A stretch of DNA of 64,000 nucleotides from a virus (lineage: Duplodnaviria; Caudoviricetes): positions 28,052 through 92,051 of IMG/VR virus record IMGVR_UViG_3300017814_000114. One strand, written 5' to 3'. The position numbers and the translations under genes were made by a program. The notes beneath the pieces are model-generated. The model saw only the letters and a list, made by a program, of their open reading frames with translations, was not told the origin of the DNA and did no database searches. Of the stretch, positions 4,693-64,000 are shown piece after piece. Position 1 is the stretch's first letter. Each line of letters opens with the position of its first letter.

Positions 4693-4725
4693 TTTTTGAA
4701 AAGAAATAATTTTCCTCTACATTTG
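4693..4725 (+). promoter_or_regulatory. Housekeeping promoter of the pentapeptide-FRG operon, copy 1
   Basis: TTTG (-33) and TACATTTG (-7); nearly identical copy at 43369..43401. Confidence 0.8.
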
Positions 4726-4742
4726 ACTTCAAATTTCAATAC

Positions 4743-5807: not shown

Positions 5808-5852
5808 TAAAGCAAATAGCTATAATTTCACTTATACTATAAACACATTATC

Positions 5853-6779: not shown

Positions 6780-6815
6780 ACTGAATATATTTAATCAAAT
6801 TATAAATGACTAATC

Positions 6816-7844: not shown

Positions 7845-7911
7845 TTCACAATAAACAGCATCAATATTACTTTTGTAATAGTTATCAACTATTTTCTAAT
7901 TTTTCTCCCCT

Positions 7912-8155
7912 TTTCCTTTGCTGTCTCAAATATTCTTTCGATATTTGCCCCAGCTAAACAGTAGTGAAATGTCTTTCACTTCGCAGAGCGCGGTTAATGC
8001 TCAACGATTTACGTCGGGCTTTTTTTATGCCCCACATACATATAAGCCATGCGGCTGTCTTCCGGGTATTTTTTTCTCTTCGGAGTGAGATTTACTACTG
8101 TTTAGCGACACGGAACGGCAGCCGTTTTTCTGTCGAAACGCTAAACAGTAGTAAT
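7912..8155 (+). ncRNA. c4/CI-like antisense RNA leader, prophage A
   Basis: gctaaacagtagt at 7953 and 8140, exact complement at 8094..8106; scaffold conserved with 46884..47124. Confidence 0.65.
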
Positions 8156-15334: not shown

Positions 15335-16495
15335 GGCACCATCAAAATGCTTTGTCTCTTCGTGCACGGTCAGCGCATCCCCTTTTAAGTATTTGTTTGT
15401 AGTCGTAATGTCCGCATGACGTGCCTGATCTCTGGCTATGACGATGCCTTCGGCATTGGCCAAATCTCTGATGCCCGAATCTTTCAAGGAATAGAACTGA
15501 AGATTGGCAGGAAAATGAAGAGCCTTTCGTACTTTTATAAAAGCCTCTCGAAAGATACGCGAATCGGCTTTTTCCTCGCTCGGTCTGAAGTCGCGCCCGA
15601 ACAGATAACAAGTAGACGGTTTGGTCAGTGCATCAAGTTCTATCAACAGACGGCAAATCCCATCATTAAGCCCTACCATACCATCGCGACGGTTCTTCGA
15701 TATTGTTGAAGAGATAAATACCTTTTGCTCCTTCAGGTTGATATCCCCTATCCTGATATTGGATAATTCATCGGGACGAATAAAAGTATAGTATTCCATT
15801 TGACAGGCAAGCAAATAATTTTTGCTTTTCTTTTCAAGATAATTCCGGAGAGCCTGAAGCTGTTCATGAGTGAGGGCACTGCGGAACTTCTGGTTTTCCG
15901 GCAGAGTTTTTATGTTTTCACACGGATTTGTCAATAGGAATCTCTTTTCAAGCAACCACGAACAAAAGGCCGACAACCAGGTGCGATAATTATTCCGTGT
16001 TCGGGCCGAAGCATCACGGTCAAGTAAGATGTAATCGAGAAAATCGGAGATAAACGCCTGGTCAAACTGATACATATATATCACTGGTTGATAGCAACTG
16101 CCATTATATTCGCACAACATTTTGATGCGAGATTTGTAATCGATCGAAGTCTTATATTTCATCACGGAAGTAGCCAACAATTTATCGATGTATTTCATGT
16201 ATATATCAATGACTTCGGCAAGTTTATAATACTGCCTGTTCGACAAAACCTCAGCCCACGGATTCCAACCTTGGCGCAGACGGTTAGTTGCATTAACGAT
16301 GATTTCGGTCGCTCTTTTTCTTCTTTCCGATTTACTGGGAATCGAATCGAGCATATATCTCTTACGACGCATTTTACCTTCCGCCGGGTCCCAGCAGAAA
16401 AAATCAACATACCAATTTTTCTTTGTGTGAAGTTTCGGAAGTGTGTAAGTCACGATCTCGAATAACGAGCTTCTTTTCCTGTTTTTTGAAAACAT
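15329..16495 (-). CDS. int: Tyrosine integrase, prophage A
   Basis: FIRPDE, KNRR, YSLKDSG, ARH..I.TT.KY; start at MFSKNR set by alignment with integrase B. Confidence 0.92.
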   Translation of the reverse strand: MFSKNRKRSSLFEIVTYTLPKLHTKKNWYVDFFCWDPAEGKMRRKRYMLDSIPSKSERRKRATEIIVNATNRLRQGWNPWAEVLSNRQYYKLAEVIDIYMKYIDKLLATSVMKYKTSIDYKSRIKMLCEYNGSCYQPVIYMYQFDQAFISDFLDYILLDRDASARTRNNYRTWLSAFCSWLLEKRFLLTNPCENIKTLPENQKFRSALTHEQLQALRNYLEKKSKNYLLACQMEYYTFIRPDELSNIRIGDINLKEQKVFISSTISKNRRDGMVGLNDGICRLLIELDALTKPSTCYLFGRDFRPSEEKADSRIFREAFIKVRKALHFPANLQFYSLKDSGIRDLANAEGIVIARDQARHADITTTNKYLKGDALTVHEETKHFDGAL

Positions 16496-16551
16496 TTTTT
16501 TTACGTTTTTAAGAGTAAAAACGTATATGTTCAACAATCAAATTAAAATTT

Positions 16552-38682: not shown

Positions 38683-39072
38683 ATGATTACTGAAGATGCT
38701 ATAAAGAAAACCTTCATCCATCAAATACTTAGACGTGATGCAGCTTTTATCTATGACACTCAAGCCCGAGTGTTGAGAGAGAACTTTACCTCGGAAAGAG
38801 CAGGCAATATGGCTAAATTTTTAGAAAGCCATCCATATAATATATCCGGATCCGGATTAAATATCTGGTATAGCTTTAATATATTTACCTATCTGCGATT
38901 ATTGGATATCAGATTCTCACGTCAGGACATAGGGACTCGTCGTCGCTTAGCGCTCTATAATAGAGTAATATGGGGAAGATTGTACCATCAGACCATCGGA
39001 GATCTGAAATACGGATTAACAGAAGATATCAAGAGGGAAATTGCAGATAAACTTATAAAAGCAAATCTCTAA
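38683..39072 (+). CDS. Putative neck/tail completion protein
   Basis: Basic; YLR.LD and LYNR.IWG motifs; last gene before the cargo island. Confidence 0.5.
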   Translation: MITEDAIKKTFIHQILRRDAAFIYDTQARVLRENFTSERAGNMAKFLESHPYNISGSGLNIWYSFNIFTYLRLLDIRFSRQDIGTRRRLALYNRVIWGRLYHQTIGDLKYGLTEDIKREIADKLIKANL

Positions 39073-39233
39073 AACACATAATCCGAAGTATTTTTAATTC
39101 ATTTTGATAAGTCTATTAATAAAAAAAGTCAATAAAATAATAGTAATAGTAATATAATTATTATCTTCGCAGTCGAAAACGATATAAAGATAATACACAT
39201 AAATATCGATAATATCCTTAGTCATACCGATTT

Positions 39234-39974
39234 ATGAATAATAGAAGATTAAAATCAATAGAGAAGTGTCCTATCATAGATTCTACAATTGAAATAAGAT
39301 TTGAGACATCAATGGATAGTAATGCAGTCTTTGGCGTTATTTATGGTCAAATTTTGGATATGTATAAAGGTAGAGTCCAAAATCTTCCTGAATCTCAGTT
39401 ACCTGCTGCCGTACGTGAATCTAACCCTGTATTACGATACAAACCATTATACAAAATCGAAGGAGAAAAAACGATTATTCAAATAGGCACTAATGTTATA
39501 GACATAGGCTCTAAATTACCTTATATAGGATGGACTGATTTTTCATCAATATTTATGCAAGTCATTAAAAAAATATGTGCGAACACCCAAATTATAAGTC
39601 GAGTTACAAGGTTCGGAATAAGATATCTAGATTTCTTTGAAGGAGACATCAAGGATAAAATCACAATGAAACTAGAAATGGACAAGAAATATAGTCCTAT
39701 AAATGAGTTTATCCGTTCAACCATTAAAAATAACGATTTTTATAGTGTGATACAATTCTATAACAGCGCTAATTATAACGATCCCGTAACAGGGAAAAAT
39801 TTATTAGGATCTGTTATTGATGTAGATACTAATAGAGAATACGCGACCCCCTATTTTTTGGATAATATTGAAAACGAAATAAAAGAGGGACATGATTCAA
39901 ATAAAGATTTATTTGTCTCGACATTAGAACCTGCTTTTTTAAAATCTTTAAATCCCCAATATTACGATGATTGA
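39234..39974 (+). CDS. TIGR04255-family protein
   Basis: PI.....EIRF, Y.GW..F, R.GIRY.D, IDVD motifs; TATCTTCG box at 39162..39169. Confidence 0.8.
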   Translation: MNNRRLKSIEKCPIIDSTIEIRFETSMDSNAVFGVIYGQILDMYKGRVQNLPESQLPAAVRESNPVLRYKPLYKIEGEKTIIQIGTNVIDIGSKLPYIGWTDFSSIFMQVIKKICANTQIISRVTRFGIRYLDFFEGDIKDKITMKLEMDKKYSPINEFIRSTIKNNDFYSVIQFYNSANYNDPVTGKNLLGSVIDVDTNREYATPYFLDNIENEIKEGHDSNKDLFVSTLEPAFLKSLNPQYYDD

Positions 39975-40557
39975 AAGTATATTGCTCTCTTTGGCTTGTG
40001 GTGGAATCCCAAACTTGTCATTTAAGGATGATATAGCAATGACAAATTCGGTAAGAGATTTATTAACTATTACTGAAAGTATAAAGATTGATAATACAGA
40101 AAGTAATAAAAATAACAATACCGATAATAATATTTCCTACGATCAATCTTTTATTAAGATGTACGAAATCATGAATGATATAAATCATTATAGCATCCAG
40201 AATCCATCCGAAAACTTTCAAACTATATATTCTAAAGTTTATAGGAGATTAAATTACCTTTCTAAATTAGATGAAGGATGGGATGGGTTTTACGCTAAAC
40301 CTGTTAACAGGGAAGTTCTCATTAGGCTAGAAAACTTGTTGGGAAAAATGGACATTCACGATATTAACAAATGGGCTATTTTCCCTGATTTGGATGGAAA
40401 TTTATATTTAGATTTAAAATCAACGTCAAAATATGCAGGGATAAATATTTACAATAGTACTTTTTCATATTTCGTTGAAGATGAAACCCTACATGGACAA
40501 GATGATATACCTTTTTCTATCGATGAATTAATTAAAGTGATGAAGTCAGTAGCATAA
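39967..40557 (+). CDS. Hypothetical protein with L..L..GWDG..AKP motif
   Basis: Overlaps both neighbours; N/D-rich low-complexity N-terminal half. Confidence 0.7.
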   Translation: MIESILLSLACGGIPNLSFKDDIAMTNSVRDLLTITESIKIDNTESNKNNNTDNNISYDQSFIKMYEIMNDINHYSIQNPSENFQTIYSKVYRRLNYLSKLDEGWDGFYAKPVNREVLIRLENLLGKMDIHDINKWAIFPDLDGNLYLDLKSTSKYAGINIYNSTFSYFVEDETLHGQDDIPFSIDELIKVMKSVA

Positions 40558-41003
40558 TGGATGGAGAGATAAAAGATTCTGAAACATTAGTGAGATCGTT
40601 ATATTCTCCTTCCTTTTTTGATGATGATCGATTATCACCTTATGCTTTTACTTTGATAATCCTTAATAACTCTAAACGAGAAGATGGAGTTTCAGTTCTT
40701 AGAAAAGATTTACCAGAGTTTGAACATGACCTTAAGTATCTTAAGACTCTTAAACCGAGAAATCCAGAAGATTCATACGCAGGGTATGCTTCTTTAGTTG
40801 CAAAAGACGTTAGAAATATACACATAAAGTCTCCTAAACATATGGAAATCGATGTTATTCCAAAGCCTTCAAAAAAGATGAAAACGCATTCAGAAATAAT
40901 TCTAAAAATTGAGGGAGAAAAAATAATAGCAGGTAATACATCAAGAGAATACCGAATATTCTGCGCTAAATTAGCCTATTTAGCGCAATGGGAAAAGAAA
41001 TAG
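40557..41003 (+). CDS. Hypothetical protein, possibly ART-fold toxin
   Basis: LVR...AF...GVSV.R...H.EI motif order; TAATG coupling. Confidence 0.5.
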   Translation: MDGEIKDSETLVRSLYSPSFFDDDRLSPYAFTLIILNNSKREDGVSVLRKDLPEFEHDLKYLKTLKPRNPEDSYAGYASLVAKDVRNIHIKSPKHMEIDVIPKPSKKMKTHSEIILKIEGEKIIAGNTSREYRIFCAKLAYLAQWEKK

Positions 41004-41175
41004 CTGACCTTAAAAAAATATGGTGTTGTCATAATGCGCGAAAATTAAAATTACCCATACTAAAGATTTTGCTAAAACTCAGTTTTTTGGTATTTTATTC
41101 GTAATTTTCTCTTATATTATTTTCTATAATACAGAAAATAATATATTTTTGCAAAGTAATTATATGCATATGAGG

Positions 41176-42180
41176 ATGAACAGATTAGAATTGTATAAAC
41201 AATTAGAACATTATCGCAATTCCAAATTGTTAGTTTATGTTACAGGTTCAAGACAAGGACTTGAAACACAGATTGCTAATGACATTCTTCCAAAAGTATC
41301 AGAGCATTTAGATAAAATAGGCGATACAGACAAAATTTCCTTATATCTATTTACAAATGGAGGGAACACACTAACGGCTTGGAGTTTGGTAAACTTGATT
41401 AAAAGCTTCTGCAAAAATTTTGAAGTAATTATACCATCTAATTGTTTTAGCTCAGGGACATTAATTTGTTTGGGATCAAATAATATTGTTATGACAAAAC
41501 AAGCTATGTTGGGACCAATTGACCCAAGTGTAAATGGCCCATTAAATCCAGCGATACCAGGATTACAACAAGACCCTAATGCAAAAGTTCCCGTAAGTGT
41601 AGAACATGTAAACGCTTACATTAATATGGCTAAAAAGGATTTTGGAATTACGAATCAGAAATATATGACAGAGATACTGCTTAAATTATCTGAAAAAATT
41701 CATCCATTAACATTAGGACAGGTTTATAAATCAAAAAGTCAGATACAAATGTTAGCAAGGAAATTGATGAAAGGACAGCATCTTAAACACGATAAAGAAA
41801 ATGCTATAATTAAATTCCTCTGTAGTGAATCTGGTAGCCATGATTATTCGATACGAAGAAAAGAAGCAAGTGAAAATTTGGGATTGCCGATAGAGAAACC
41901 AACAATGGAAGAATATACCGTTATTAAAGCGATATATGACGATATTTCCAAGGAATTAGAGTTGGATAATCCCTATAATCCTAATATCTATTTAAGTAAT
42001 CAAGATAATGCCCATTATTCATTTAGGCGAGGATTAATTGAATCTTTAGAAGGAGGAACTGATGTTTTTGTTAGTGAAGGGACATTATCAAAGACAACTA
42101 TCCAACTTCAGCCAGGGATTGTTCAACAAATGGCATTGAATGATAATAGAACTTTTGAAGGTTGGCGACATGAAAATTAA
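41176..42180 (+). CDS. ClpP-fold serine protease (SDH family)
   Basis: TNGG, FSSGTLI.LG, LGPIDP, SHDY motifs; the TTG start at 41149 lies inside the TATTTTTG promoter box. Confidence 0.85.
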   Translation: MNRLELYKQLEHYRNSKLLVYVTGSRQGLETQIANDILPKVSEHLDKIGDTDKISLYLFTNGGNTLTAWSLVNLIKSFCKNFEVIIPSNCFSSGTLICLGSNNIVMTKQAMLGPIDPSVNGPLNPAIPGLQQDPNAKVPVSVEHVNAYINMAKKDFGITNQKYMTEILLKLSEKIHPLTLGQVYKSKSQIQMLARKLMKGQHLKHDKENAIIKFLCSESGSHDYSIRRKEASENLGLPIEKPTMEEYTVIKAIYDDISKELELDNPYNPNIYLSNQDNAHYSFRRGLIESLEGGTDVFVSEGTLSKTTIQLQPGIVQQMALNDNRTFEGWRHEN

Positions 42181-42352
42181 TACTATGGCTTTAAGTAAAA
42201 TATCAAGCACTGGATATAATCCAAAAACTGAATTAAGAACAAATTCTTATAGTGCAAAATTGTTCAGTGAAAATTCAGCAGTAAAGAATACAACTGCAGA
42301 GTTTATAAAAAATAAGACTGTAATCATTTCTAATGAAATAAGAAAGTTTTGA
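42170..42352 (+). CDS. 60-aa S/T/N/K-rich peptide
   Basis: ATG overlaps the protease stop region. Confidence 0.5.
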   Translation: MKINTMALSKISSTGYNPKTELRTNSYSAKLFSENSAVKNTTAEFIKNKTVIISNEIRKF

Positions 42353-42362
42353 GTCACATATT

Positions 42363-42599
42363 ATGCTTGAACGAGAATTTAAATATTACCTGAAGCATCA
42401 AAATGAGTTGCTTAAAAAGTATAACAATAGATATATTGTTATTGTAGGTGACAATGTTATAGGTGATTATGACAATGCATTAGATGCTTTTGAAGAAGCA
42501 AGTAAAAAGTACGAAGCGGGTAAATTTCTTATTCAAGAATGTACGGAAGGAAAAGGAGCTTACACTCAGACGTTTCATTCAAGAGTGAGTTTTGCGTAA
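42363..42599 (+). CDS. DUF5678-like small protein
   Basis: F.YY..HQ.ELLKKY..RYIVI....VIG.YD...A. Confidence 0.7.
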   Translation: MLEREFKYYLKHQNELLKKYNNRYIVIVGDNVIGDYDNALDAFEEASKKYEAGKFLIQECTEGKGAYTQTFHSRVSFA

Positions 42600-43159
42600 T
42601 GAAAATAAGTTCATTTACCCAAATATGTTCTAAAGAAGAACGTTGTTTAACTACTCTTTGTGGTGCTAGTGAAGCCTTTGACCCACAAAAGAGAGATAAA
42701 AATTTTCCCCATATTACTCAATATAAATCAATATGGGATACTGGTGCGATGGGAATTGTTGTAACCAAAAACGTAATAGAAAGACTAAAGCTACAACCTA
42801 TTCGCCCTATCCATGTTGAAACAGCCTCTGGTCCATATGATACTTTCGCATATTTGATTAATTTGTATCTTCCCAATAATATCTTGATACCTGGAGTTTG
42901 GGTTTCAGAAGGGAAAATTGTAGATGCTGACATCCTTATCGGTATGGATGTAATATCCAGAGGTGACTTTGCCATCTCATCTTCAGATAAAAGTACGAAA
43001 TTTACGTTTCAAATGCCATCAAACCACAATACTGATTATGTTTATGAAGCTCAACTAATAGATAAATACCAAAAAATTCATGTTGAATGGATAAAACATG
43101 GCAATAATAGATGTCCTTGTGGTAGTGGAAAACAATGGAATCAGTGTCATGGTAAATAA
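42599..43159 (+). CDS. Retropepsin-like aspartic protease with C-terminal SEC-C motif
   Basis: WDTGA, DILIGMD, CPCGSGK.W..CHG; start at the TAATG overlap (42599). Confidence 0.88.
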   Translation: MKISSFTQICSKEERCLTTLCGASEAFDPQKRDKNFPHITQYKSIWDTGAMGIVVTKNVIERLKLQPIRPIHVETASGPYDTFAYLINLYLPNNILIPGVWVSEGKIVDADILIGMDVISRGDFAISSSDKSTKFTFQMPSNHNTDYVYEAQLIDKYQKIHVEWIKHGNNRCPCGSGKQWNQCHGK

Positions 43160-43298
43160 AATCATTTATTAAGTAAAAGTTAATTACGACACCCTATTTT
43201 TTTAGGATTATAAGGGGGGAGTATTGTCATATATAGGCACCTATAATTATGAATATAGTATGTCGATCTAATTAAGCTATTTTAAGCCGTTTGAGAAG

Positions 43299-43331
43299 AG
43301 GAACATCGTACGCCGATTGTTCCTCTTCTTT
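43299..43331 (+). terminator. Terminator hairpin (copy of 3286..3316)
   Basis: aggaacatcg/cgattgttcct stem. Confidence 0.7.
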
Positions 43332-43368
43332 CTTAAATGTCATTTCCTTGTAAAATTTTCGTCTTGAG

Positions 43369-43401
43369 TTTTTGATAAGAAATAAATTTCCTCTACATTT
43401 G
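43369..43401 (+). promoter_or_regulatory. Housekeeping promoter of the pentapeptide-FRG operon, copy 2
   Basis: TTTG and TACATTTG boxes. Confidence 0.8.
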
Positions 43402-43418
43402 ACTTCAAATTTCAATAC

Positions 43419-44345
43419 ATGAAAACAAAGTTTACCATTCCATTTAAATTAAAGCCATCATTTAAAGAATGGGTTTGTATTATTGTTGTCCTTTTTTTTA
43501 GCCCTTTTATAGGTGTCTTTATTAATTATAGCACCTCATTATATCTCGGCGACCTATACACTTTCGGGATATCCGATCGAAAGGATTTCTTCACAGTGTG
43601 GATCGCTTTATTTGGTGCTATAGGCATTGCATTCAATATATACCAGAACCAAAAGAGGACGAAGAACCAAGAAAAACAACTTGAAAAACAACAGGCACAA
43701 ATTGAGCTACAAAGCAAGTCGCAACGTGATAGCAGATTTTCGAAAGGCATCGAATTATTAGGTAATGACAATGAATCAGCCAGAACCGGAGCGGCTTATA
43801 GTTTATGCTTTCTAGCAAAAGATTTTCCAGATGAATTTTCGAAACCCGTATTTGACATTCTATGTTCTCATATCAGGACGCTTACTACTTCCGATGATTA
43901 TTTAGAAAAACATCCAACAGTGTCAAATGAAGTACAAACAATATTAAATTTATTGTTTAAAACTACAGACGGCAGTAATATAACTCCATTTTCTACTTAT
44001 AAAGCAAATTTGAGTAGAGCACATTTAGAAGGAGCGGATTTGGAAAAGGCTCATTTAGAAAAAGCTTATTTGTTCGATGTCAATTTAGAAAGTGCTATTT
44101 TGCATGATGCTAATTTAGAGAAGGCTCATTTATTCCGAGCTCATTTGGAAAATGCTTTTTTAGAAAAAGCCCATTTAGAAAAGGCCTTTTTGCAAGAGGC
44201 TGTTTTAGAAGAGGCTGTTTTGGAAGGAGCATTTATCTATTCCTCCCAAAAAACAGTTCTTAAACAAAGTGGAGCCGATTTATCTGGCGTCGAATGGGTT
44301 AATAACGAAGAACAAACAATTATAACAGATAAAGATTCCCTGTGA
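43419..44345 (+). CDS. Membrane-anchored pentapeptide-repeat protein, copy 2
   Basis: Paralog of 4743..5807; AHLEK-type repeats. Confidence 0.88.
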   Translation: MKTKFTIPFKLKPSFKEWVCIIVVLFFSPFIGVFINYSTSLYLGDLYTFGISDRKDFFTVWIALFGAIGIAFNIYQNQKRTKNQEKQLEKQQAQIELQSKSQRDSRFSKGIELLGNDNESARTGAAYSLCFLAKDFPDEFSKPVFDILCSHIRTLTTSDDYLEKHPTVSNEVQTILNLLFKTTDGSNITPFSTYKANLSRAHLEGADLEKAHLEKAYLFDVNLESAILHDANLEKAHLFRAHLENAFLEKAHLEKAFLQEAVLEEAVLEGAFIYSSQKTVLKQSGADLSGVEWVNNEEQTIITDKDSL

Positions 44346-44416
44346 TAAACAAAAAAGGAGTAGTCACTTAAAACGGCTTATTATATTAATTCCACTTATA
44401 CTATAAACACATTATC

Positions 44417-45337
44417 ATGGATGATATATTAAAAGAAATTCATTGTACCGATGCTAAAGATTTTATTTCAAAGTTTTCGTATGGAGGTGAATATTTTCAT
44501 TTACGAAATGAAAATTTTATTTTCAGAGGAGAACCTTCGGATCAATATTCTCTCATACCAAGTTCTTTGCGAGAAAAAAATCGGACAAACATTGAGAGAA
44601 TAATAAGGAACTTCATTCCTGAATTTTCAAAAGACATTTTTGACTTGTCCATAGAATATCATCAAATTACTTCAGAATATATACTACTTAGCATGTTTTT
44701 TAGAGAATGTGATCGCAATGGTTTATATATTCCAGACATAACCGATCTTAGATCTTTAGCAGCGGTCAAGATACCTTTACAAGAAGAGCTAGATAATATA
44801 GAGAAGTGGCTACCACTTAATTATATTGAACTTGCAGGCTTAGCTCAACATTATGGAATATATACAAGATTGCTTGATTGGAGTTTCGATTTTAATGTTG
44901 CACTATATTTTGCCGTATCTGGTTACATGCTAAATAAAACAGATAACCATCCTAAAAACATAGTAATATGGGCATTAAATACAGAGATTGTAGTAAATAA
45001 CAAATTCGATATGACGGGATTAAAAATTACTGTCCCAAAATATAATAGTAATCCTAATTTATGTGCACAAAAAGGAGTTTTCACCTTGTGGCAAATAACA
45101 AATACAGGAAGGGATTTTGAAATGCATACTAATAGAGCCCCTTTAGATCAGTTGATTAAAAAGAATTCTGAACTTATAATAACAAATACAAAGAATGGCA
45201 ATCCACTATATAAAATATATATCCCAGTCGAGAATTATCACGAGCTAAAGACTTATTTAGAGACATCAGGTTATGATTCAGCCAGGCTATTCCCTGGATA
45301 TGGGGGTGCTGCCAAATATATTTTAAATAATCTTTAA
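44417..45337 (+). CDS. FRG-domain protein, copy 2
   Basis: FIFRGE, LAQHYGIYTRLLDWS. Confidence 0.9.
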   Translation: MDDILKEIHCTDAKDFISKFSYGGEYFHLRNENFIFRGEPSDQYSLIPSSLREKNRTNIERIIRNFIPEFSKDIFDLSIEYHQITSEYILLSMFFRECDRNGLYIPDITDLRSLAAVKIPLQEELDNIEKWLPLNYIELAGLAQHYGIYTRLLDWSFDFNVALYFAVSGYMLNKTDNHPKNIVIWALNTEIVVNNKFDMTGLKITVPKYNSNPNLCAQKGVFTLWQITNTGRDFEMHTNRAPLDQLIKKNSELIITNTKNGNPLYKIYIPVENYHELKTYLETSGYDSARLFPGYGGAAKYILNNL

Positions 45338-45366
45338 GCATAAACATTTTAATCAATTGTAAAACT

Positions 45367-46869
45367 ATGAATGAGAATCTTTCCAAAACAAATACTTATG
45401 CGTTACTAATCGGTAATAATAACTATCTTGGAAATGAGTTAAACAATGCCGTAAACGATGCAGAAGGTATTAAAGAAATGTTTGATAAGCTAGGATATAA
45501 AACAGATATAAGAACAAATTTTAAGCGTGATGATATTGCAGCAATCAAAGAAAATTTAAAAGAAAACATAAAGAATATTGAAATAGGCATTTTCTATTTT
45601 GCTGGACATGCCTTTGAAATAGACAACAAAAACTATATTGCACCTATTGATTGCCCCTTTTCTAGTAAAGAAAAATCTAATTGTACCTTTTATTGCATGA
45701 CATTGGATGAAATAATCGAGATATTTGATAAATCCACTTGCCAAATAAAAATCATCATACTTGATGCCTGTCGAAATAATCCATTTAAAGGGACTAGAGG
45801 TATAGGAGCATGTACTCTTGCACCAATCAAAGTAACGAAAGGATACATTATCGCATATTCCACATCACCTGGTGAGACGGCATTGGATAATTCTTCGGGC
45901 CCAACCAATCATGGTGTATACGCAAGTGCTTTTATTTCTCACTTGGAAGAGAAACATTTACCTGTGGAGAATTTTTTTAAAAAAGTGAGAGAAACAGTGT
46001 ATTCATTAACTGAAGGTAAACAGGTTTCATGGGAGCATACTTCTTTGATAGGAGATTTTTGCTTTAATAAAGGCGGAATCTCTTATAAAGATCTTCCCTA
46101 TAGCGAAGAGGCTATAAAGGATTACAAATACAAAAATCACGGTTCTCCATTTGATGATATTATTAATGGACTAAAATCTTATGATTGGGGAATACAAAAA
46201 GAAGCTATAACAAAAATTGCAAAGAATATTAATGCCGATATTAACGAACAGTTTGTTTTAGGTAGAAATATTTTGCAAGCATCTGATGGAAATTCCTATG
46301 AGGCACAAATATTCATAGATAAATTAGATAACAACATCAAGTCTTATACAACACCACAAGGAGACAATCACATATTAAACGGAATACTATATGAAATATA
46401 TTTCAATTCTCGTGGGGAATTTAGAACACTTGACAATGCCAAATGTCAAGGAGACATTGATAAAATATTCTCATTGCAATATAATCCAAATTACAAAAAA
46501 TCATTTCTTTTTATATCGGACCTCTTAGCTGAATATCAAGACTCTTTATACTATGTTCCAAATGGCGCTAGTAATAATATAATATCAATTACAGTAACTT
46601 TTAGCGATGAAAAAGGAACAGATATTATTGGCAATTCAGAAGTTCATAATGTAATTAATAAAATTTCGGTAGGAGCACAAGACATTACAAAAAAGATGAG
46701 AAGTAAATATACGATTTGCAATGCATCTAAAGAGGATTTGACATTGAATATTGCTAAATGTTTGGTAGCTTATTCGCAGGACATAGCATATAATCCTGAA
46801 ATACCTGATAAAAATTTATATTTAAATCTTTATTCTGAGGTAATTGATTGGAGTACATTATTAAAATAG
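45367..46869 (+). CDS. Caspase-family (C14) protease with uncharacterised C-terminal domain
   Basis: ALLIGN..Y, L.NAVNDA, FAGHA (His), LDACR (Cys), YSTSPG..A.D. Confidence 0.92.
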   Translation: MNENLSKTNTYALLIGNNNYLGNELNNAVNDAEGIKEMFDKLGYKTDIRTNFKRDDIAAIKENLKENIKNIEIGIFYFAGHAFEIDNKNYIAPIDCPFSSKEKSNCTFYCMTLDEIIEIFDKSTCQIKIIILDACRNNPFKGTRGIGACTLAPIKVTKGYIIAYSTSPGETALDNSSGPTNHGVYASAFISHLEEKHLPVENFFKKVRETVYSLTEGKQVSWEHTSLIGDFCFNKGGISYKDLPYSEEAIKDYKYKNHGSPFDDIINGLKSYDWGIQKEAITKIAKNINADINEQFVLGRNILQASDGNSYEAQIFIDKLDNNIKSYTTPQGDNHILNGILYEIYFNSRGEFRTLDNAKCQGDIDKIFSLQYNPNYKKSFLFISDLLAEYQDSLYYVPNGASNNIISITVTFSDEKGTDIIGNSEVHNVINKISVGAQDITKKMRSKYTICNASKEDLTLNIAKCLVAYSQDIAYNPEIPDKNLYLNLYSEVIDWSTLLK

Positions 46870-46883
46870 AAAAATCTCGCCTT

Positions 46884-47124
46884 TTCCTTTGCTATCTCAA
46901 ATATTCTTTCGATATTTGTCCCAGTCAAACGTCCACGAACGATTTCGTGTCGCAGAGCGCGGTTAATGCTCAACATACAACGTCGGGCTTTTTTTATGCC
47001 CGGCCGTAAAATATGGCGGCTGCTTATTCCTTTCATTTTTTTGTGCTCCGGCATGAATCTGTGGACGTTTGACGACGGGGAATGGCAGCCGTTTTTCTGT
47101 CTAAAATGTCAAACGCCCACAGTT
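46884..47124 (+). ncRNA. c4/CI-like antisense RNA leader, prophage B
   Basis: gtcaaacgtccac at 46924, complement gtggacgtttgac at 47061, gtcaaacgcccac at 47108. Confidence 0.65.
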
Positions 47125-47382
47125 ATGAAAACAAATCAAATGGGAATGCTCCTTCTCCCAGCTCCAGCCAAGAGAGCTAAAAGAATCAACTGGCACCTTG
47201 TCCGTGCCGAGATTATCAAATTTTACAATCGTTATGTGCCAGAAGAATTCAAGATAAAGACTAAAAGCGATGCCTTCAATTCTTTGTCCGTATACACACT
47301 TGCCATCAGTCTGATAATACCATACGTTATACCTGCTTTTGCTTGGTGCGTATATAAAGCAAAGAGAGGAGGTAACAAATGA
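47125..47382 (+). CDS. Small membrane protein, homolog of 8156..8416
   Basis: MKTN start 4 nt after the third box; SDA and CVYK shared. Confidence 0.6.
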   Translation: MKTNQMGMLLLPAPAKRAKRINWHLVRAEIIKFYNRYVPEEFKIKTKSDAFNSLSVYTLAISLIIPYVIPAFAWCVYKAKRGGNK

Positions 47383-47732
47383 GTATTCTTAATATATCCC
47401 ACGAAGGAAAAATCATCGAATATGTAGACCAACGCAAAGCCCCTAACCGGGCTTTCGAAGAAATGAAAAAATGCTTTGAAGAATGCGCGCAAAAATGTCT
47501 GACATTCGAAGAATCATACGAAAAGATATCAGACAACTTTAACACACTCAAGTCCTCTGCATTCAAATCCGGCACCGGAAACATGAAAATTGATAAATAC
47601 TTTCAGACATCATACTACAACGACATCAACTCCATCTATCTTAGATATAGTAATGAAGATGTGATATGCATATTCAATCAATATGGGAAACCAAAAGAAA
47701 AGGAGGATGACGAAGATGGAGAGAAAGATTAA
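47379..47732 (+). CDS. Hypothetical phage protein
   Basis: Coupled ORF. Confidence 0.55.
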   Translation: MSILNISHEGKIIEYVDQRKAPNRAFEEMKKCFEECAQKCLTFEESYEKISDNFNTLKSSAFKSGTGNMKIDKYFQTSYYNDINSIYLRYSNEDVICIFNQYGKPKEKEDDEDGEKD

Positions 47733-47952
47733 TATCAATCTGCCGGAGAAGTTACAAGAAACGATTTCCCGGTACCAAGAAGACGATGGAGAGCTCGCAC
47801 AATATTATATCAAACTATTGGACGAAGTCAGTGGATATTTTTTAAACGAAAACGTGCTATCCGTTGTTGATATAGACATGGCGAAACTGATATCCATGCT
47901 TCGCGACATCCGAGCGATAAGAATGGATTTATCCAGTTTTGTAGCGAAATAA
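47716..47952 (+). CDS. Hypothetical phage protein
   Basis: Helical ORF, loosely similar in size and position to 8403..8654; start uncertain. Confidence 0.5.
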   Translation: MERKININLPEKLQETISRYQEDDGELAQYYIKLLDEVSGYFLNENVLSVVDIDMAKLISMLRDIRAIRMDLSSFVAK

Positions 47953-48265: not shown

Positions 48266-51200
48266 ATGGGCAAAAGACTTTCTGAAGATGAAATAAAGTG
48301 GATTCTTTCTCTCGATGCTTCCGGAGCAGAGAAAGAAATGAATAAGCTCAAACAAAGTTCTTACGAGCTTACGGATCGAAACAAGCAGCTGAAGACTATA
48401 CTTACACAACTAGAAGCTGCAGGCAAAAAAGACTCAGACCAATATCATCAGCTAAGCGCTGAGATGAAAAGAAATAGTGATGCCATCTCGAAAAATAGAT
48501 CTGAGATGGCGCAACTCACAAAGCAAATGGGACTGGAGAACCTCTCTATGTCTCAGCTGAAGTCTCATGCAAAGGACCTGCAAAGACAACTTGACTATAC
48601 CTCAAAAAGTCTGCATCCGGAAGAATGGGAAAAACTCAATGCAGACTTACAAAAGACGCGTTCTCAAATGGACAATCTTACATTGTCCGGGAGAAAAGTG
48701 TCATCAATGCTATCCGATTCGTACAAAAAGTTCAACGTCTTCAACGTGATCGGGAATGTAGCAGGAAATCAGGCAGCACTACTGTTCGACAGATACATCA
48801 CAAAAATGAAATCGTTCGCAAACGAAGCCGTCGGCGTTTCGGCAAAAGCGGATGGTATAAAAAAAGCTTTCGCAAGGCTTAACGAACCGGGACTCCTCGA
48901 CAATCTGCGCAAAACGGTTCATGGAACGATGACCGATGTCGAGCTTATGCAAAAGGCCAACCTGGCTCACACCTTCAGTATACCGTTGCAAAATCTTTCA
49001 AAATATCTGGAGTTCGCTCATCTACGTGCCAATCAGACGGGACGCGACTTTAACGAACTGGCCGATGCTATCATTACAGGCATCGGAAAACAGTCGACTA
49101 AAAAACTTGCCGCTCTAGGACTTAACGTCACGGAACTGAAGAATAACATAAAAACAAACGGCAACTATATTCTCGGGCTCAACGAAACAATAGATGAGCA
49201 AATACAAAAAGCCGGGGGTGATTACGTGTCTGCCGCCGATGCCGCTAAGAAACGAACGGCAGAGCTTGCCAACGAACAAGTAAAACTAGGAGATCAACTA
49301 CGTCCTATCAAAGCCCAATATGTAGCCTTGACACAACAAATCCTTGTCTGGTCTGCCAAAGAGTTGGTATGGGCCAGCGAACATAGAAAAGGTTTACTAA
49401 TAGTAGCCGGAGCCCTCGGGGTCGTAACTGTTGCATACGGTTTATACAATGCCGCTATGAAGATACATAACATGTATATGGGATATCACAACATGCTCGT
49501 TTCGGCCGGCAATAGAGTACTTGTTATTCGGACAATATACACCAATGCCTTATCCGCAGCAACTAAACTGGTAGCATTACGGACTACTGAAGCAAGCATA
49601 GCGCAAAGAACCTTTGCAACAACAGAAGCAGCATCTTCGGTAGTAAGTAGGGCCCTTACGTCTGCCATGTTGCTTCTTAGAGCTGCGATGATGTTATTGA
49701 GCGGTGATATTCAGAAAGCCAAAGAAGCGTGGATCGCTTTTACGGCCATTTCCAAAACCGATCCATGGATACTACTCGCGACAGCCATAATAGCAGCAGG
49801 GGCGGCACTCATATATTTTTCAATTAAGAATAAAGAACTCACTCAGGCGCAAAAAGATGCAATGCGTGTGAGTGGAGAAATCAATAAAAAGTATGCTGAA
49901 GAAAAAGCGACTGTCGAACAATTGTCAAAGACCGTGCACGATTCCAAATTATCATATCAGGAACGTTATAATGCTTTGGCGGAGCTAAAGAAGATAGCTC
50001 CGGGCTATCATGCTACCCTTACCAAAGAAGGGAAATTGATTAATGATAATACAAGTGCATTAAAAAGCTATTTGCGACAGCTCCGTGCAAAGTTAATACT
50101 AGAAGCATCAGGAGATCAACTTAAAAAGCTGTATACTGATCAGGAGATACAACAGGAAACACTCAATCGCTACAAAACGATGCACAAAATACGCCGAGGC
50201 ATTGAGGATAAAACCCCTGCCCAAAATGCAGTAGTAATGAACAGTTCTGCCGGTGCTGTCGTCGTTGGTGGGGGTAAAGACTATAGTCAATCTGATGCCT
50301 ACCAAAGAACCATTGACGATACTCAGAAAAAATTGAATCAAACGGAAGGCAGTATTAAAGTCTTCGAAAGGTGGCAAGAGAATGCAAGGAAAAAACTTGA
50401 TCAGATGGCTGGAGCAGCAAATGAAGCAGTACCTACTGCTCCTAAAGACGACTTATCGCTATTCGACACGACACCTACTAAAGATAAAAAAATAAAGAAA
50501 AACACAGTAGATCCAAATCAGATCAAGCTCGAAAACATGCAATCGGCCCACGAAAAAGAGCTAAACGCTATTAAGAAATATGGGCAAGACCGAGAACTGA
50601 TGGAAGAGCAAATAAATATTTCGACCTCTCAAAGCGATGTTGAATATTACAAAAATCGAATAGCTCATCTGCAATCTTATCTCACATCGACGAAAGATAT
50701 TAAAAAACGTGCGGCCTATAACAAAGAATTGGTGGAAGCCGAAACAAAACAAGCTCAAGCTGAAACGGATATTGATAAAAACAAAATAGCTCTTTTACAA
50801 AAATATAGAGAAGAGGATCTGAAAAATGTAGAAGAAGAAGTCGCTAGTCAAAAAGCGATAAACGATAATAAACTCGCTAATGGACTGATCACTCAGGAAA
50901 ACCACGACAACCAACTTCTAGCCATCGAATCTGGAGCAGCTGAATGTCGGCTACAAGTTCAAAAGAATTTTTTCGAATTGGTGAACGCGGAAGAGCTGAA
51001 AAATGGGAAGTTGAAAAAAGACACCGTTGCTGCAGCCAATCAAGAAATAATCAAAGCAGACACCGATGCAGCCAACGCTCGAATGGAAATAGTCAAGAAG
51101 TTCACATCCGGTTACAAAGAGTCACTCGATAAGCTTAATGATATGGGTGGTGGTAACTCGATAGAGGCAGATCACTACTTACAAAAGGCCGCTTTAGAAG

Positions 51201-52372
51201 CGACGTATAATGCTGGGAAAGCTTATATCAAGTCGAATAACGATAATGCCGCAAAAACGGGTGCTCCTTTGATGAGCCAAACATCTCTGGATGCTGCCTA
51301 TAACAATGCAAAAGAGAAACTCGAGCAGGATCATCAACAAAAGATTCTTGAGATTCGACAAAAATATGGTATTCAAGAATACCATAAAATACTTGAAAAT
51401 CAAATTGCTGAAATAAATAAGCATGAGAAAGAAGGTGTACTGACTCACCAAGAAGCCGAGCGATTGAAGTTGCAAAAAACGGCTGAGACATATATGCAGA
51501 TGGCTCAATATTACGTAAATCTTTTTTCCAATGTCATACAGGAGATGCAACAAGCCGAAATGGACCAAGTTGATGCTAAGTATGATGCCGAAATATCAGC
51601 AGCTGAAGGAAATTCGGAGCAACAGGAAAAACTCGAAAAAGAAAAGGAAGCAAAGAAACTCGACATTCAGAAAAAATATGCAGATATTGATTTTATAGTT
51701 AAAATTAATCAGATAGGTGCTTCAACCGCTTTAGCAGTTATGCAAGCTTTTGCTCAGCTAGGACCAATCGCAGGAGCAATAGCTGCGACAATGGTATCTG
51801 CCGTAGGGACTATGCAGCTAGTGCAAGCGGTAGCTGCAAGGAATCGTGTAAAAAGACTTACGGCAGAAGGAACGACTTCGGGGTCCTCGGTGTCACGTGT
51901 AGCTACCGGTCGTGAAAGTGGCGGTAGCATTTTAGTCGAGCGCGAACAGGATGGCAAAATCTTCAATGCAAAATATGATCCGGATAAAAGAGGGTTTGTT
52001 GATAAGCCTACAGTTATTGTTGGCGAAGGTGAAGAGTCGAAAGAATGGATAGCCAGCAATGCAGCTGTTACTAACCCCACGATAGCTCCGTTCCTTTCCG
52101 TTCTTGACCAGGCACAACAAGCAGGACGCATCAAAACGCTTGATTTCAATAAAGTAATACAAAGCAAAGTGTCCGGCCGTTCCAGCGGGGGAAGCATAAG
52201 TGACAATCATAGCATACCAACTCTGGTACCAGGTGACACGTCCGGGTTAGAGAAAGCGGCGAAACAACTCAGTGACACACTTAGTGCCGGTATACATGCT
52301 ACGGTAGTCCTTACCGAACTTGAGGAACAACAAAACTTAAGAAATAAATCAAGAAATATAGGTAGCAAATGA
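48266..52372 (+). CDS. Tail tape measure protein, prophage B
   Basis: 1368 aa helical, DPW TM motif, C-terminal organisation like tape measure A. Confidence 0.88.
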   Translation: MGKRLSEDEIKWILSLDASGAEKEMNKLKQSSYELTDRNKQLKTILTQLEAAGKKDSDQYHQLSAEMKRNSDAISKNRSEMAQLTKQMGLENLSMSQLKSHAKDLQRQLDYTSKSLHPEEWEKLNADLQKTRSQMDNLTLSGRKVSSMLSDSYKKFNVFNVIGNVAGNQAALLFDRYITKMKSFANEAVGVSAKADGIKKAFARLNEPGLLDNLRKTVHGTMTDVELMQKANLAHTFSIPLQNLSKYLEFAHLRANQTGRDFNELADAIITGIGKQSTKKLAALGLNVTELKNNIKTNGNYILGLNETIDEQIQKAGGDYVSAADAAKKRTAELANEQVKLGDQLRPIKAQYVALTQQILVWSAKELVWASEHRKGLLIVAGALGVVTVAYGLYNAAMKIHNMYMGYHNMLVSAGNRVLVIRTIYTNALSAATKLVALRTTEASIAQRTFATTEAASSVVSRALTSAMLLLRAAMMLLSGDIQKAKEAWIAFTAISKTDPWILLATAIIAAGAALIYFSIKNKELTQAQKDAMRVSGEINKKYAEEKATVEQLSKTVHDSKLSYQERYNALAELKKIAPGYHATLTKEGKLINDNTSALKSYLRQLRAKLILEASGDQLKKLYTDQEIQQETLNRYKTMHKIRRGIEDKTPAQNAVVMNSSAGAVVVGGGKDYSQSDAYQRTIDDTQKKLNQTEGSIKVFERWQENARKKLDQMAGAANEAVPTAPKDDLSLFDTTPTKDKKIKKNTVDPNQIKLENMQSAHEKELNAIKKYGQDRELMEEQINISTSQSDVEYYKNRIAHLQSYLTSTKDIKKRAAYNKELVEAETKQAQAETDIDKNKIALLQKYREEDLKNVEEEVASQKAINDNKLANGLITQENHDNQLLAIESGAAECRLQVQKNFFELVNAEELKNGKLKKDTVAAANQEIIKADTDAANARMEIVKKFTSGYKESLDKLNDMGGGNSIEADHYLQKAALEATYNAGKAYIKSNNDNAAKTGAPLMSQTSLDAAYNNAKEKLEQDHQQKILEIRQKYGIQEYHKILENQIAEINKHEKEGVLTHQEAERLKLQKTAETYMQMAQYYVNLFSNVIQEMQQAEMDQVDAKYDAEISAAEGNSEQQEKLEKEKEAKKLDIQKKYADIDFIVKINQIGASTALAVMQAFAQLGPIAGAIAATMVSAVGTMQLVQAVAARNRVKRLTAEGTTSGSSVSRVATGRESGGSILVEREQDGKIFNAKYDPDKRGFVDKPTVIVGEGEESKEWIASNAAVTNPTIAPFLSVLDQAQQAGRIKTLDFNKVIQSKVSGRSSGGSISDNHSIPTLVPGDTSGLEKAAKQLSDTLSAGIHATVVLTELEEQQNLRNKSRNIGSK

Positions 52373-61331: not shown

Positions 61332-61805
61332 ATGAAAATGTTATTTATTAGTTATTTGTTATCGGGAGATAATGCAAAAATAGCAATGTGGTTGCTTGTT
61401 GCTGCAGCCTTAGCTTTTCCCCCAAATATTGCAAGTTTTATCGACCTTGTTACTGGCATAAAAGCGAGTAAGAGGCTTGGCAATTTCAAGACAACCTCAT
61501 TCGGGTTGAGACAAACGATTAGTAAAGATAGAGACTACATGACTTACTTCTTCCTCATGTTCCTTATCGATTGCTGTCTCTCGTTCTTCATTGACTTTCC
61601 AGTCATGTGTATTCTTTGTGCCATTGCGGAAACGGTTATAGAGGTTATATCTATCAGGGAAAACATGCACAAAGGACGTACAGAAACACATGATCCGATT
61701 GCGTTGATGCAAAGCATTGCCACTGCTTACGGTCAAGACAAAGCCGATAAGATTTTCAATATCATCAAACAACAGGAGGAAAAAAACAATGAGAATAACG
61801 GTTGA
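61332..61805 (+). CDS. Holin
   Basis: DLVTGI.AS......TS.GLR.T..K, three TM segments, E..SI.EN; overlaps the endolysin start. Confidence 0.82.
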   Translation: MKMLFISYLLSGDNAKIAMWLLVAAALAFPPNIASFIDLVTGIKASKRLGNFKTTSFGLRQTISKDRDYMTYFFLMFLIDCCLSFFIDFPVMCILCAIAETVIEVISIRENMHKGRTETHDPIALMQSIATAYGQDKADKIFNIIKQQEEKNNENNG

Positions 61806-62199
61806 CAGGCTTTGGAAGAAAGAGACGTATACCATCGGTAAAATGGCCATCGATGGAAAATACTTCTGCAACACACTTGAAGATAAAGAGAGAGACCTCA
61901 CCAAAGAATCCAAAGTTTTCGGCAGGACGGCCATTCCTGCCAGAACTTACCGGATAACGATGACTTACTCGCCGAAGTTCAAGCGAGTGATGCCACTCGT
62001 TAACGGCGTTCCGCAGTTCGAAGCGATCCGCATTCATCCGGGTAACAAGGCTGAAGATACGGAAGGTTGTATCTTGGTTGGTGAGAATACCATAATAGGG
62101 GGACTGACAAATTCACGTAAGTGGTCTGATGAACTGAACAAACGCATTCAGGATGCCTTAGCTAGTAAAGAAGATGTTTTGATAACCATTAAAGATTGA
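61789..62199 (+). CDS. Endolysin, DUF5675 family
   Basis: Near-identical to 54..467; ATG at 61789 by alignment. Confidence 0.85.
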   Translation: MRITVDRLWKKETYTIGKMAIDGKYFCNTLEDKERDLTKESKVFGRTAIPARTYRITMTYSPKFKRVMPLVNGVPQFEAIRIHPGNKAEDTEGCILVGENTIIGGLTNSRKWSDELNKRIQDALASKEDVLITIKD

Positions 62200-62203
62200 T
62201 GAT

Positions 62204-62623
62204 ATGAAACGAAAACAGACGTATATGTACACTATCATCCTATTTATGATATTGCTGACTTCATGCCGATCGGTCAAGTATGTGCCGGTTGAAAGTGTAC
62301 GGACAGAAACGAAGTATATCGATAAGCTGGTGCAAAAGCACGATTCGATCTATTTGCACGATTCGATTTCTTCGTATATCAAAGGGGACACGGTATTTCT
62401 AAATAAATACCGGACGAAGTACGTGAACAAGTACATCTTTGGCACAGACAGTATCTATTTTAATAAGACCGATTCCGTTCGTATCCCTTATCTTGTAGAG
62501 AAGCAACTCACCAAGTGGCAAAAGGTAGAAATGAATACCGGCAGAATAACGATTATTGCATTGATTGTGTTGGCTCTTTCATCAGGAATTTATATATTTG
62601 TGAATTATAAAGTGAGAAAGTAA
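62204..62623 (+). CDS. Spanin-like lipoprotein
   Basis: Near-identical to 681..1100. Confidence 0.75.
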   Translation: MKRKQTYMYTIILFMILLTSCRSVKYVPVESVRTETKYIDKLVQKHDSIYLHDSISSYIKGDTVFLNKYRTKYVNKYIFGTDSIYFNKTDSVRIPYLVEKQLTKWQKVEMNTGRITIIALIVLALSSGIYIFVNYKVRK

Positions 62624-62830: not shown

Positions 62831-64000
62831 TTATAAATTTCCTTTGAAATGTTTTGTTTCATCGTGTACCGTCAACGCATCCCCTTTTAAATATTTATTC
62901 GTCGTCGTAATGTCCGCATGTCGTGCCTGGTCTCGAGCCACGACGATGCCTTCTGCATTTGCCAGATCTCTAATACCAGAATCCTTTAAAGAGTAAAATT
63001 GATAATAAGCCGGCCATTTTAAAGTCTTCCTAAGATTCACAAAACTATCTCGAAATATGCGAGCACTCGCTTGGTCCTGAGATGGTATAAATTTCTCGCC
63101 AAATAGATAATCACTGTTAGGATGGGAAAAGACATCAAGTTCGATCATAAGCCTAATTAATTCATCATTGATACCCACCATGCCATCCCGCCTATTTTTA
63201 GAAAAAGCAGACGATATGAATATTTTTTGTTCCTTGATTCGTATATCACCCACTTTTATATATGTCAGTTCCGTCGGTCGAATAAAAGTATAATATTCCA
63301 TCATGCATGCTAAAAGAAAAGGTTTATTCGTCCTTCCAAGATGTTCACGAAGTAGGTGAAGATCATCTGCAGTCAATGCACTACGAAACTTTTGCTCCTC
63401 GGGTAAACATCTTATTTTAGATACCGGATTTTCTAATAAATATTTTTTTTCGACAAGCCAGGAACATAGAGCCGATAACCAAGTACGATAATTGTTTCTT
63501 GTACGTGCTGACGAATCCCGGTCTAACAAAATATAATCAAGGAAATCAGAAATAAAAGCTAAATCAAACTGATAGATATATACGATCTTACTATAACGTT
63601 GTCCGTTATAGGCTATTAGTGTACTCAGACGCGACAGATAATCATATACGGTTTTTTGTTTCATCGCCCCCGTTTTCTCCATCTTAGAGATATACAGTTG
63701 GAATTGATTAAGTACATTTTCAAAAGATGCATATTGCCGTTCATTCCCTGCTTCAGCCCATGGATTCCATCCGGATCTTAGTTTACCTGCTAATGATGCT
63801 ATTAGTTCCATCGCTCTCTTTTTCCTATCCGATGGTCTATCAATTCCATCTAGCATGTACTTTTTACGACGTAGACTATCGGTAATGGGGTCGAAACAAT
63901 AAAAATCAACATACCAATTCTTTCCGACAGAATGAAGCTTTGGGAGTGTGTAAGAAACAACTTCATAAAAAGAGGATCCTGATCTGTGTCGAGACAACAT
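62831..64000 (-). CDS. int: Tyrosine integrase, prophage B
   Basis: Paralog of integrase A with a near-identical catalytic C-terminus; ATG at the last bases of the window. Confidence 0.92.
   Translation of the reverse strand: MLSRHRSGSSFYEVVSYTLPKLHSVGKNWYVDFYCFDPITDSLRRKKYMLDGIDRPSDRKKRAMELIASLAGKLRSGWNPWAEAGNERQYASFENVLNQFQLYISKMEKTGAMKQKTVYDYLSRLSTLIAYNGQRYSKIVYIYQFDLAFISDFLDYILLDRDSSARTRNNYRTWLSALCSWLVEKKYLLENPVSKIRCLPEEQKFRSALTADDLHLLREHLGRTNKPFLLACMMEYYTFIRPTELTYIKVGDIRIKEQKIFISSAFSKNRRDGMVGINDELIRLMIELDVFSHPNSDYLFGEKFIPSQDQASARIFRDSFVNLRKTLKWPAYYQFYSLKDSGIRDLANAEGIVVARDQARHADITTTNKYLKGDALTVHDETKHFKGNL

Follow-up and report, generated by a model that had tools for sequence, protein, structure and literature searches.

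A probable hotspot for defence and accessory genes upstream of a conserved leader RNA in Bacteroidales prophages

The window analysed in this study, a stretch of 64,000 nt, comprises bases 28052-92051 of the 92-kb IMG/VR provirus record IMGVR_UViG_3300017814_000114 and contains two tandem prophages, A and B. Most probably (with a probability of about 0.8), the segment 39073-46883 of prophage B (island B) and its counterpart in prophage A, 1201-7900 (island A), represent the filled cargo slot of a large, mosaic group of temperate tailed phages of Bacteroidales, located directly upstream of the promoter of a conserved, non-coding, structured leader of about 250 nt. The original prediction, made from the letters of the window, had described this region as a defence/moron hotspot anchored on the leader. 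This view is supported by the dip in G+C (GC) content upstream of the leader, by the occupancy of the slot in 66 of 73 loci surveyed, by its variable content (127 gene families), by the exchange of cargo on near-identical backbones, including 21 close pairs with replaced segments and a locus with an empty slot (L079), and by PADLOC matches, among them matches to known defence systems.

Two AT-rich islands upstream of the same leader

The GC content of islands B and A is 31.3% and 30.7%, respectively, compared to 40.5% in the rest of the window. Other 7.8-kb segments of the 92-kb record have a mean GC content of 41.4% (standard deviation 2.2, minimum 37.7), and both islands lie more than 4 standard deviations below this mean, being the two lowest stretches of the record, in line with the AT-richness originally noticed. 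The islands contain 10 (B) and 8 (A) open reading frames (ORFs) of at least 70 aa. As predicted, none of the ORFs of either island matched a structural family, while the family matches obtained were to proteases, pentapeptide repeat, FRG, caspase, DUF5053 and DUF5678. The same leader, with 78% column identity between its two copies, abuts both islands, which end 6-60 nt before it. The two islands of the window are the two largest in the survey described below, island B being the largest but one among the 63 complete islands.

It might be supposed that there is no hotspot at all, that one block has been inherited by or copied between the co-resident prophages, and that its adjacency to the leader is coincidental. 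The pentapeptide-repeat and FRG genes, the hairpin and the leader are indeed common to A and B (75-81% nucleotide identity). However, only 2 of the 8-10 genes are held in common, and the same 66 of 73 unrelated loci carry a low-GC block with other genes at the same place, which makes this explanation extremely unlikely.

Survey of leader-bearing loci

A 20-21-nt pattern of the leader core matched 11 IMG/VR contigs and 12 GTDB genomes, and a looser two-part leader pattern matched at least 103 IMG/VR contigs. The sequence surrounding the leader was fetched, reaching at most 14 kb upstream and 6 kb downstream, and the removal of duplicates yielded 87 loci among the matches listed (given here as L followed by a number). 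ORFs were called and clustered over these 87 non-redundant loci (clusters are denoted by c), whereas GC and occupancy counts refer to 73 loci. The surveyed loci are not redundant copies of a single phage, because they carry 58 distinct leader codes (see below). Leader carriers in GTDB belong to Duncaniella, Muribaculaceae, Bacteroides, Phocaeicola, Sangeribacter and "Porphyromonadaceae"; one carrier of such a prophage, Bacteroides sp. OM05-12, has two copies. The exact leader pattern was absent from all of a further 400 genomes sampled evenly across the order of one host, and the leader is therefore sporadic among species representatives. Among GenBank phages, one metagenomic record with a partial leader was found, and no cultured phage; the literature searched contained no description of this slot or of DUF5053.

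Relative to the local background, the GC content of successive kilobases upstream of the leader deviates by -9.1, -6.9, -4.1 and -2.6 points. The first upstream kilobase is more than 5 points below the background in 81% of the loci, while at distances of more than 5 kb upstream, and downstream from 2 kb on, the deviation is approximately zero and only 2-11% of the loci are more than 5 points low. Islands of low-GC genes abutting the leader have a median length of 1.8 kb and a median of 3 genes. With the leader as bait, the upstream content thus proved to be far from invariant: the 226 low-GC cargo genes fall into 127 families, including 85 singletons, and slot families occur in fewer loci than families on either flank. 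Most of the cargo genes (201 of 226, or 89%) are co-oriented with the leader.

The original prediction located the hotspot just upstream of the leader and the tape-measure gene, but the latter follows the leader in only 12 of ~60 non-redundant loci. In the others, the first large gene after the leader encodes a protein of 190-220 aa, the portal, a protein of 344 aa or an opposite-strand integrase. Because the downstream neighbour varies in this way, the role of anchor falls to the leader with its promoter and not to the tape-measure gene. In all 87 loci the slot is bounded on the right by the leader promoter; on the left it begins where a backbone gene ends, namely DUF5053, terminase or a 591-aa tail gene. 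The leader and the small ORFs downstream of it were found in at least five backbone contexts. In addition, the 129-aa backbone gene (c10) that lies upstream of the cargo in prophage B (38683-39072) has homologues in L028, L044, L046 and L048 which lie between the leader and the tape-measure gene, immediately ahead of the latter; the leader module thus occupies different points of one backbone.

Turnover between near-identical backbones

A close pair was taken to be two loci whose flanks show at least 88% identity on either side of a non-homologous segment of at least 400 bp. In 20 of the 21 pairs found, the replaced segment lies within 5.6 kb upstream of the leader. The right junction is situated 4-97 nt from the leader core in 10 pairs and one shared gene further left in 9. 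Where the leaders are at least 97% identical, 5 of 7 pairs have no cargo family in common. A breakpoint histogram of 973 locus pairs, tried at first as evidence of the hotspot, was dropped in favour of the close pairs, since the diversity of these phages is by itself enough to make homology break off on either side of the leader.

The one unoccupied site is that of L079, in which the terminase stop codon is ~150 nt from the leader promoter. Its flanks are 98.9% and 96.9% identical to those of L097, which harbours a 1.9-kb insert with the promoter segment at both ends; a second copy of this segment occurs 0.45-1.5 kb upstream in 18 of 87 loci. On the same backbone, with terminase on the left and leader and portal on the right, L097 and L147 carry three genes, L063 and L111 other cargo, and L081 and L105 a methylase, a nuclease and a HEPN protein. 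Likewise, in two further contexts unrelated to this one, the cargo differs among L046, L044, L048, L028, L072, L116, L131 and L135, which share the backbone formed by DUF5053, leader and tape-measure gene, and among L084, L130, L052, L095, L030 and L041, where the slot lies between tail gene c16 and the leader followed by an integrase (with a tape-measure gene to the left of the slot in this backbone).

These pairs also bear on the possibility that cargo and leader constitute one portable unit, with the cargo functionally belonging to the leader operon, for example by read-through that feeds the leader RNA or by being under leader control; the block would then move between backbones as a whole, and the leader would not be a mere passive mark for insertions. 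The multiple backbone contexts of the leader, the alternative placement of c10, the preponderance of co-oriented cargo genes and the lack of a hairpin between the last cargo gene and the leader promoter in both A and B would all fit such a unit, as would the comparison of L079 with L105 or L111, where the leader is 82-88% identical while the flanks are 95-99% identical. However, identical leaders are found with unrelated cargo or none (L079 versus L097, L140, L064 and L112), the same cargo, a pair of exonuclease-BRCT and 174-aa genes, accompanies different leader codes (L060, L071, L098, L143), and junctions are located between cargo and leader. A single portable unit is therefore improbable.

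Under the preferred hotspot reading, the slot would be filled with one to several mostly co-oriented, AT-rich and apparently self-contained cassettes of restriction-modification-like, abortive-infection-like, candidate defence (FRG, HIRAN, caspase, HEPN), toxin-antitoxin or surface lipoprotein type, which, judging by the positions of the junctions, would be gained, lost and replaced via recombination. The right junction would lie at the leader promoter or no more than ~100 nt away from it, or else be displaced leftwards by one gene, and the left one would coincide with the end of the final backbone gene, in many cases past a strong hairpin and the DUF5053 gene. The slot may be tolerated as it lies between two transcription units, the leader presumably having its own promoter, and insertions would therefore not disturb the phage operons. 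The nucleotide conservation of the leader across unrelated phages, over about 250-300 nt, could supply the right-hand homology for one crossover, and the promoter-segment duplications suggest that some cassettes enter at the promoter. We infer that the cargo would be expressed from the prophage and would protect the lysogen.

A more far-reaching and rather doubtful proposal is that the leader itself acts as an exchange device, a universal homology patch with a promoter that is sometimes duplicated around inserts, letting defence cassettes hop between phages whose structural modules differ. The leader may be regarded as such a patch because its scaffold has stayed almost unchanged in nucleotide sequence among Bacteroidales phages that are otherwise unrelated. 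If this were true, the immunity locus and the defence arsenal would travel linked, yet be reshuffled independently.

Functions of the cargo

A PADLOC scan of 38 slot proteins produced 14 credible matches, including FRG/PDC-S15 (two), caspase, DEDDh exonuclease-BRCT, HIRAN/PDC-M03B (three), PDC-S02, a C5-methylase with an NsnA/restriction endonuclease (REase)-like protein, PD-T4-4_A (L135) and an AbiC-like protein, the latter also matching the Pfam family putAbiC (E value 3e-14). A complete PD-Lambda-5 system, both proteins of which matched end to end (E values of 3e-152 for its protein A and 7e-119 for its protein B), is present in L030, L043 and L101. Pfam adds a HEPN_MAE_28990 protein, encoded in a cassette with the C5-methylase and the NsnA/REase-like protein. 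No Pfam or PADLOC match was obtained for a recurrent two-gene cassette (~327 and 205-211 aa, 28-33% GC; L095:3006-4612, minus strand, as well as L071 and L077) or for a 466-aa slot gene (L059:2940-4340, plus strand), and no recombinase or transposase was recognized among the annotated slot genes.

Part of the cargo is predicted to consist of lipoproteins and toxin-antitoxin genes rather than of recognizable defence genes. The gene adjacent to the leader often codes for a lipoprotein or secreted protein (clusters c23, c36, c39, c81, c100, c103 and c113), and 27 of the 226 proteins encoded by the cargo have lipobox-like N-termini. In many related phages, a gene for a HicA toxin (PF07927, E value 9e-12) borders the slot on its left side, as at L031:7304-7570 (minus strand), with equivalents in ~14 loci; its neighbour, a 132-137-aa partner, belongs to no known family, and the two probably form a HicAB-like pair.

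The slot could accordingly be a general moron site, in which the cargo serves mainly host fitness or surface superinfection exclusion and anti-phage systems are an incidental minority, so that mining would yield few new ones. Both the frequent lipoprotein or secreted product next to the leader and the lipobox-like N-termini point in this direction, as do the 24 of 38 tested proteins with no credible PADLOC match. Nevertheless, this very position harbours the complete, validated PD-Lambda-5 system and a number of nuclease, ATPase or methylase cassettes made up of several genes, and the larger cassettes are mostly of defence type; hence we consider this alternative unlikely.

Several considerations weigh against the slot being a defence hotspot. 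Its putative enrichment in defence genes is judged from matches of 14 of 38 slot proteins, 10 of the tested ones having been picked by size or recurrence; several of the matches are to PADLOC "PDC" candidate families, which were never validated, and many slot genes encode small lipoproteins or proteins that lack any match. As every locus was retrieved via the leader, the sample consists of leader-bearing slots only. Islands A and B should not be counted as two independent fillings, since the pentapeptide-repeat and FRG genes are common to both. The cargo promoters are presumed from a motif that shows no enrichment. Finally, the recombination mechanism is proposed on the basis of junction positions, with promoter duplications in just those 18 of 87 loci.

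The leader RNA

The leader carries a three-box code: box 1, of 13 nt, is complementary to box 2 and is repeated in box 3, which ends 2-8 nt before the first downstream ATG. Over 84 non-redundant loci, both the exact complement and the repeat have a median length of 13 nt, and the boxes, which make up the 58 distinct codes, co-vary between phages. In the fold of leader B, box 1 is paired to box 2 (z-score -4.3). A search of Rfam, at the gathering score over the window and at E values up to 10 over the leader, gave nothing usable and no match to C4. On these grounds, the leader is a strong candidate for a new RNA family.

With a target box, a complementary box within a structured RNA and a second target box at a start codon, all co-varying, the leader resembles loci of the c4/CI type in layout and is a probable RNA-based immunity locus. 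No antirepressor or kil gene was found downstream of the leader, where the ORFs have no Pfam or PHROG family.

Organization of the window

The coordinates of the features are compiled in Table 1. The pentapeptide-repeat and FRG genes with the preceding hairpin are the only part that islands A and B have in common (~80% nucleotide identity). The hairpin and the pentapeptide promoter are contiguous in prophage B (43300-43401), whereas in A they are split by the 396-aa gene, a nested insertion in the shared module between the hairpin (3287-3310) and the pentapeptide promoter (4695); an atlas look-up of this minus-strand gene returned no usable match. In module B1, the 246-aa protein matches phrog_5464 and a TIGR04255-like cluster, and the 196-aa protein has a weak PDC-M32A match. 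The family of the 206-aa protein of module B3 also occurs in the slot of L031, L125 and L141, and the FRG protein of island B matches PADLOC PDC-S15 with an E value of 5e-32. A tRNA scan found none, and the slot consequently has no att-type landmark.

Table 1. Positions of the cargo islands, their modules and the leaders in the window.
Feature	Position	Strand	Description
Cargo island A	1201-7900	+	6.7 kb
DUF5053 gene of A	1234-1461		hairpins on both sides
73/289/110-aa unit of A	1761-3231
396-aa gene of A	3342-4532	-	nested; coiled-coil/membrane
Pentapeptide gene of A	4743-5807
FRG gene of A	5853-6779
342-aa protein gene of A	6816-7844		unknown protein
Leader A	7904-8155	+	box 1 at 7954; core 7983-8002; box 2 at 8094; box 3 at 8141; ATG 8156
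Tape-measure gene of A	9147-13511
Cargo island B	39073-46883	+	7.8 kb; four modules with 10 ORFs, all co-oriented; flanked by backbone gene 38683-39072 and leader promoter
Module B1	39234-41003	+	overlapping ORFs of 246, 196 and 148 aa (coupled three-gene unit)
Module B2	41149-42352	+	ClpP-like SDH-type serine protease, 343 aa (PF01972, E value 1.6e-14; phrog_11747), and 70-aa ORF
Module B3	42363-43159	+	DUF5678 (78 aa) and retropepsin-like aspartyl protease with SEC-C motif (206 aa)
GC-rich hairpin with T-rich tail	43300-43323	+	conserved; left edge of module shared by A and B; A copy at 3287-3310
Module B4	43419-46869	+	pentapeptide-repeat (308 aa), FRG/PDC-S15 (306 aa) and caspase-family Peptidase_C14 (500 aa) proteins
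Leader B	46875-47124	+	promoter-like segment; box 1 at 46924-46936; invariant core 46952-46971
Leader B, box 2	47061-47073	+	complementary to box 1
Leader B, box 3	47108-47120	+	repeats box 1; 4 nt before ATG 47125
Leader B operon ORFs	47125-47952	+	three small ORFs, no family match; followed by tape-measure gene 48266-52372

Prophage A ends with its integrase (15329-16537, minus strand), and prophage B extends from ~16.8 kb to its own integrase at 62831-64000 (minus strand). Judging by their gene content, they are related in a mosaic manner, with 63% identity between the integrases, 55-88% protein identity for a few genes and mostly unrelated remaining genes. The genes of A at 54-1100 and the last genes before the integrase of B (61332-62623) encode proteins with 85-88% identity. 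This block (1-1100 and 61332-62623 of the window) comprises three genes, coding for a 157-aa protein, a DUF5675 protein and a 139-aa lipoprotein-like product, and its position relative to the tail genes differs between the prophages.

The order common to prophage A and its relatives is lysis-like genes, DUF5053, cargo, leader and tape-measure gene, whereas the left neighbours of island B are genes that follow the portal. The suspicion that prophage A is an aberrant rearrangement was dropped, the same gene order being present in L028, L044, L046, L048 and others. The left neighbours of the two islands thus differ, as the original prediction stated, but its labels of "lysis" genes in A and "neck" genes in B gained no confirmation beyond the DUF5675 match. 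They stay unverified because searches of PDB sequences with the DUF5675 protein and the 325-aa left neighbour gave no match. PHROG and Pfam scans of the slot-flanking genes and of the small ORFs after the leader revealed no informative families.

The cargo units had further been credited with their own TAnnTTTG-like promoters, a claim that was confirmed only in part. On the plus strand, the motif precedes certain units (1719, 4718 and 7868 in A; 41144 and 43394 in B), but it is not enriched in the window in its exact form (56 occurrences against 68.8 expected), and the full form TTTG-N17-23-TAnnTTTG is present only ahead of the two pentapeptide genes, as exemplified by the promoter-like TTTG-N-TAcaTTTG at 43371, ahead of module B4. 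A sigma-70 promoter and terminator scan, which is ill-suited to Bacteroidota, gave counts no higher than those of shuffled sequences. Hairpins are located at 1138, 1504 and 3287 in A and at 43300 in B, none lies between the last cargo gene and the leader promoter in either prophage, and most loci have a strong hairpin ahead of the DUF5053 border gene. The 13-mer ATTATCTTCGCAG, with an A-rich run after it, occurs at 1203-1215 (before DUF5053 in A) and at 39160-39172 (before the first cargo gene in B), and ATTATCTTCGCAG may be a promoter or start region shared by the left edges of both islands.

Comparison with known systems

To our knowledge, the anti-phage systems so far discovered or assayed in gut Bacteroidales are few. 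A nucleotide bait of 20-30 nt that lands beside a variable slot with complete known systems offers a cheap harvest of candidates, such as the recurrent two-gene cassette, the 466-aa gene and the protease, FRG and caspase modules of the window. Moreover, accessory defence cargo appears to be tied here to a probable RNA-based immunity locus, a link that could explain how these prophages diversify both their own immunity and the defences of their host.

P1/P7 immI (c4 RNA-icd-ant) and P4 CI are RNA immunity loci. Like P1 c4 and P4 CI, the leader combines a 5' target box and a complementary box in a structured RNA with a second target box over the start of the first ORF, and its code varies between phages (58 codes in 84 loci), as in P1/P7 immI and P4 CI. 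Unlike P1/P7 immI, it has no sequence or Rfam match to C4, and the downstream ORFs have no family. We know of no cargo hotspot described beside immI.

Morons of lambdoid phages, a concept of Hendrix and Juhala, are extra genes of deviant base composition inserted between late-gene blocks. The slot genes resemble them in their deviant composition (31% versus 40.5% GC in the window, and the mean of -9.1 points over 73 loci) in their location between blocks of late genes and in being apparently separate units with hairpins at their ends. They differ in that the site is common to phages with unrelated structural modules, and in that the promoters, the terminators and the expression in the lysogen are predicted ones. 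The PADLOC entries PD-Lambda-5, PD-T4-4 and PDC-S15, the last a candidate family, describe single cassettes and not the slot.

The closest known counterparts are the anti-phage hotspots of P2 and P4, in which a conserved position is occupied by many arrangements of known and unknown systems (Rousset et al. 2022, PMC9122126); further prophage hotspots in Vibrio and Bacillus, i.e. in other phyla, have already been reported (PMC9122126). As in P2/P4, the slot has a fixed position in a temperate element, is bounded by conserved sequence and holds many alternative arrangements among relatives, including replacements on near-identical backbones, and its cargo mixes known systems (restriction-modification, Abi), proteins with defence-type domains and unknowns. 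The right anchor here, however, is a non-coding RNA leader with its promoter, whereas in P2/P4 the slots are bordered by protein genes (psu/int) or cos. In addition, the location of the anchor varies from backbone to backbone, Bacteroidales serve as hosts, and the cassettes are stacked, with up to four modules in the window, in a slot known so far from sequence alone. The adjacency of cos in P2/P4 has been proposed to provide a recombination substrate, and one of the backbones described above has its slot between the terminase and portal genes. Phage-borne defence hotspots are thus already known as a class; what is new in this case is the host group, the RNA anchor and the mobility of that anchor among backbones.

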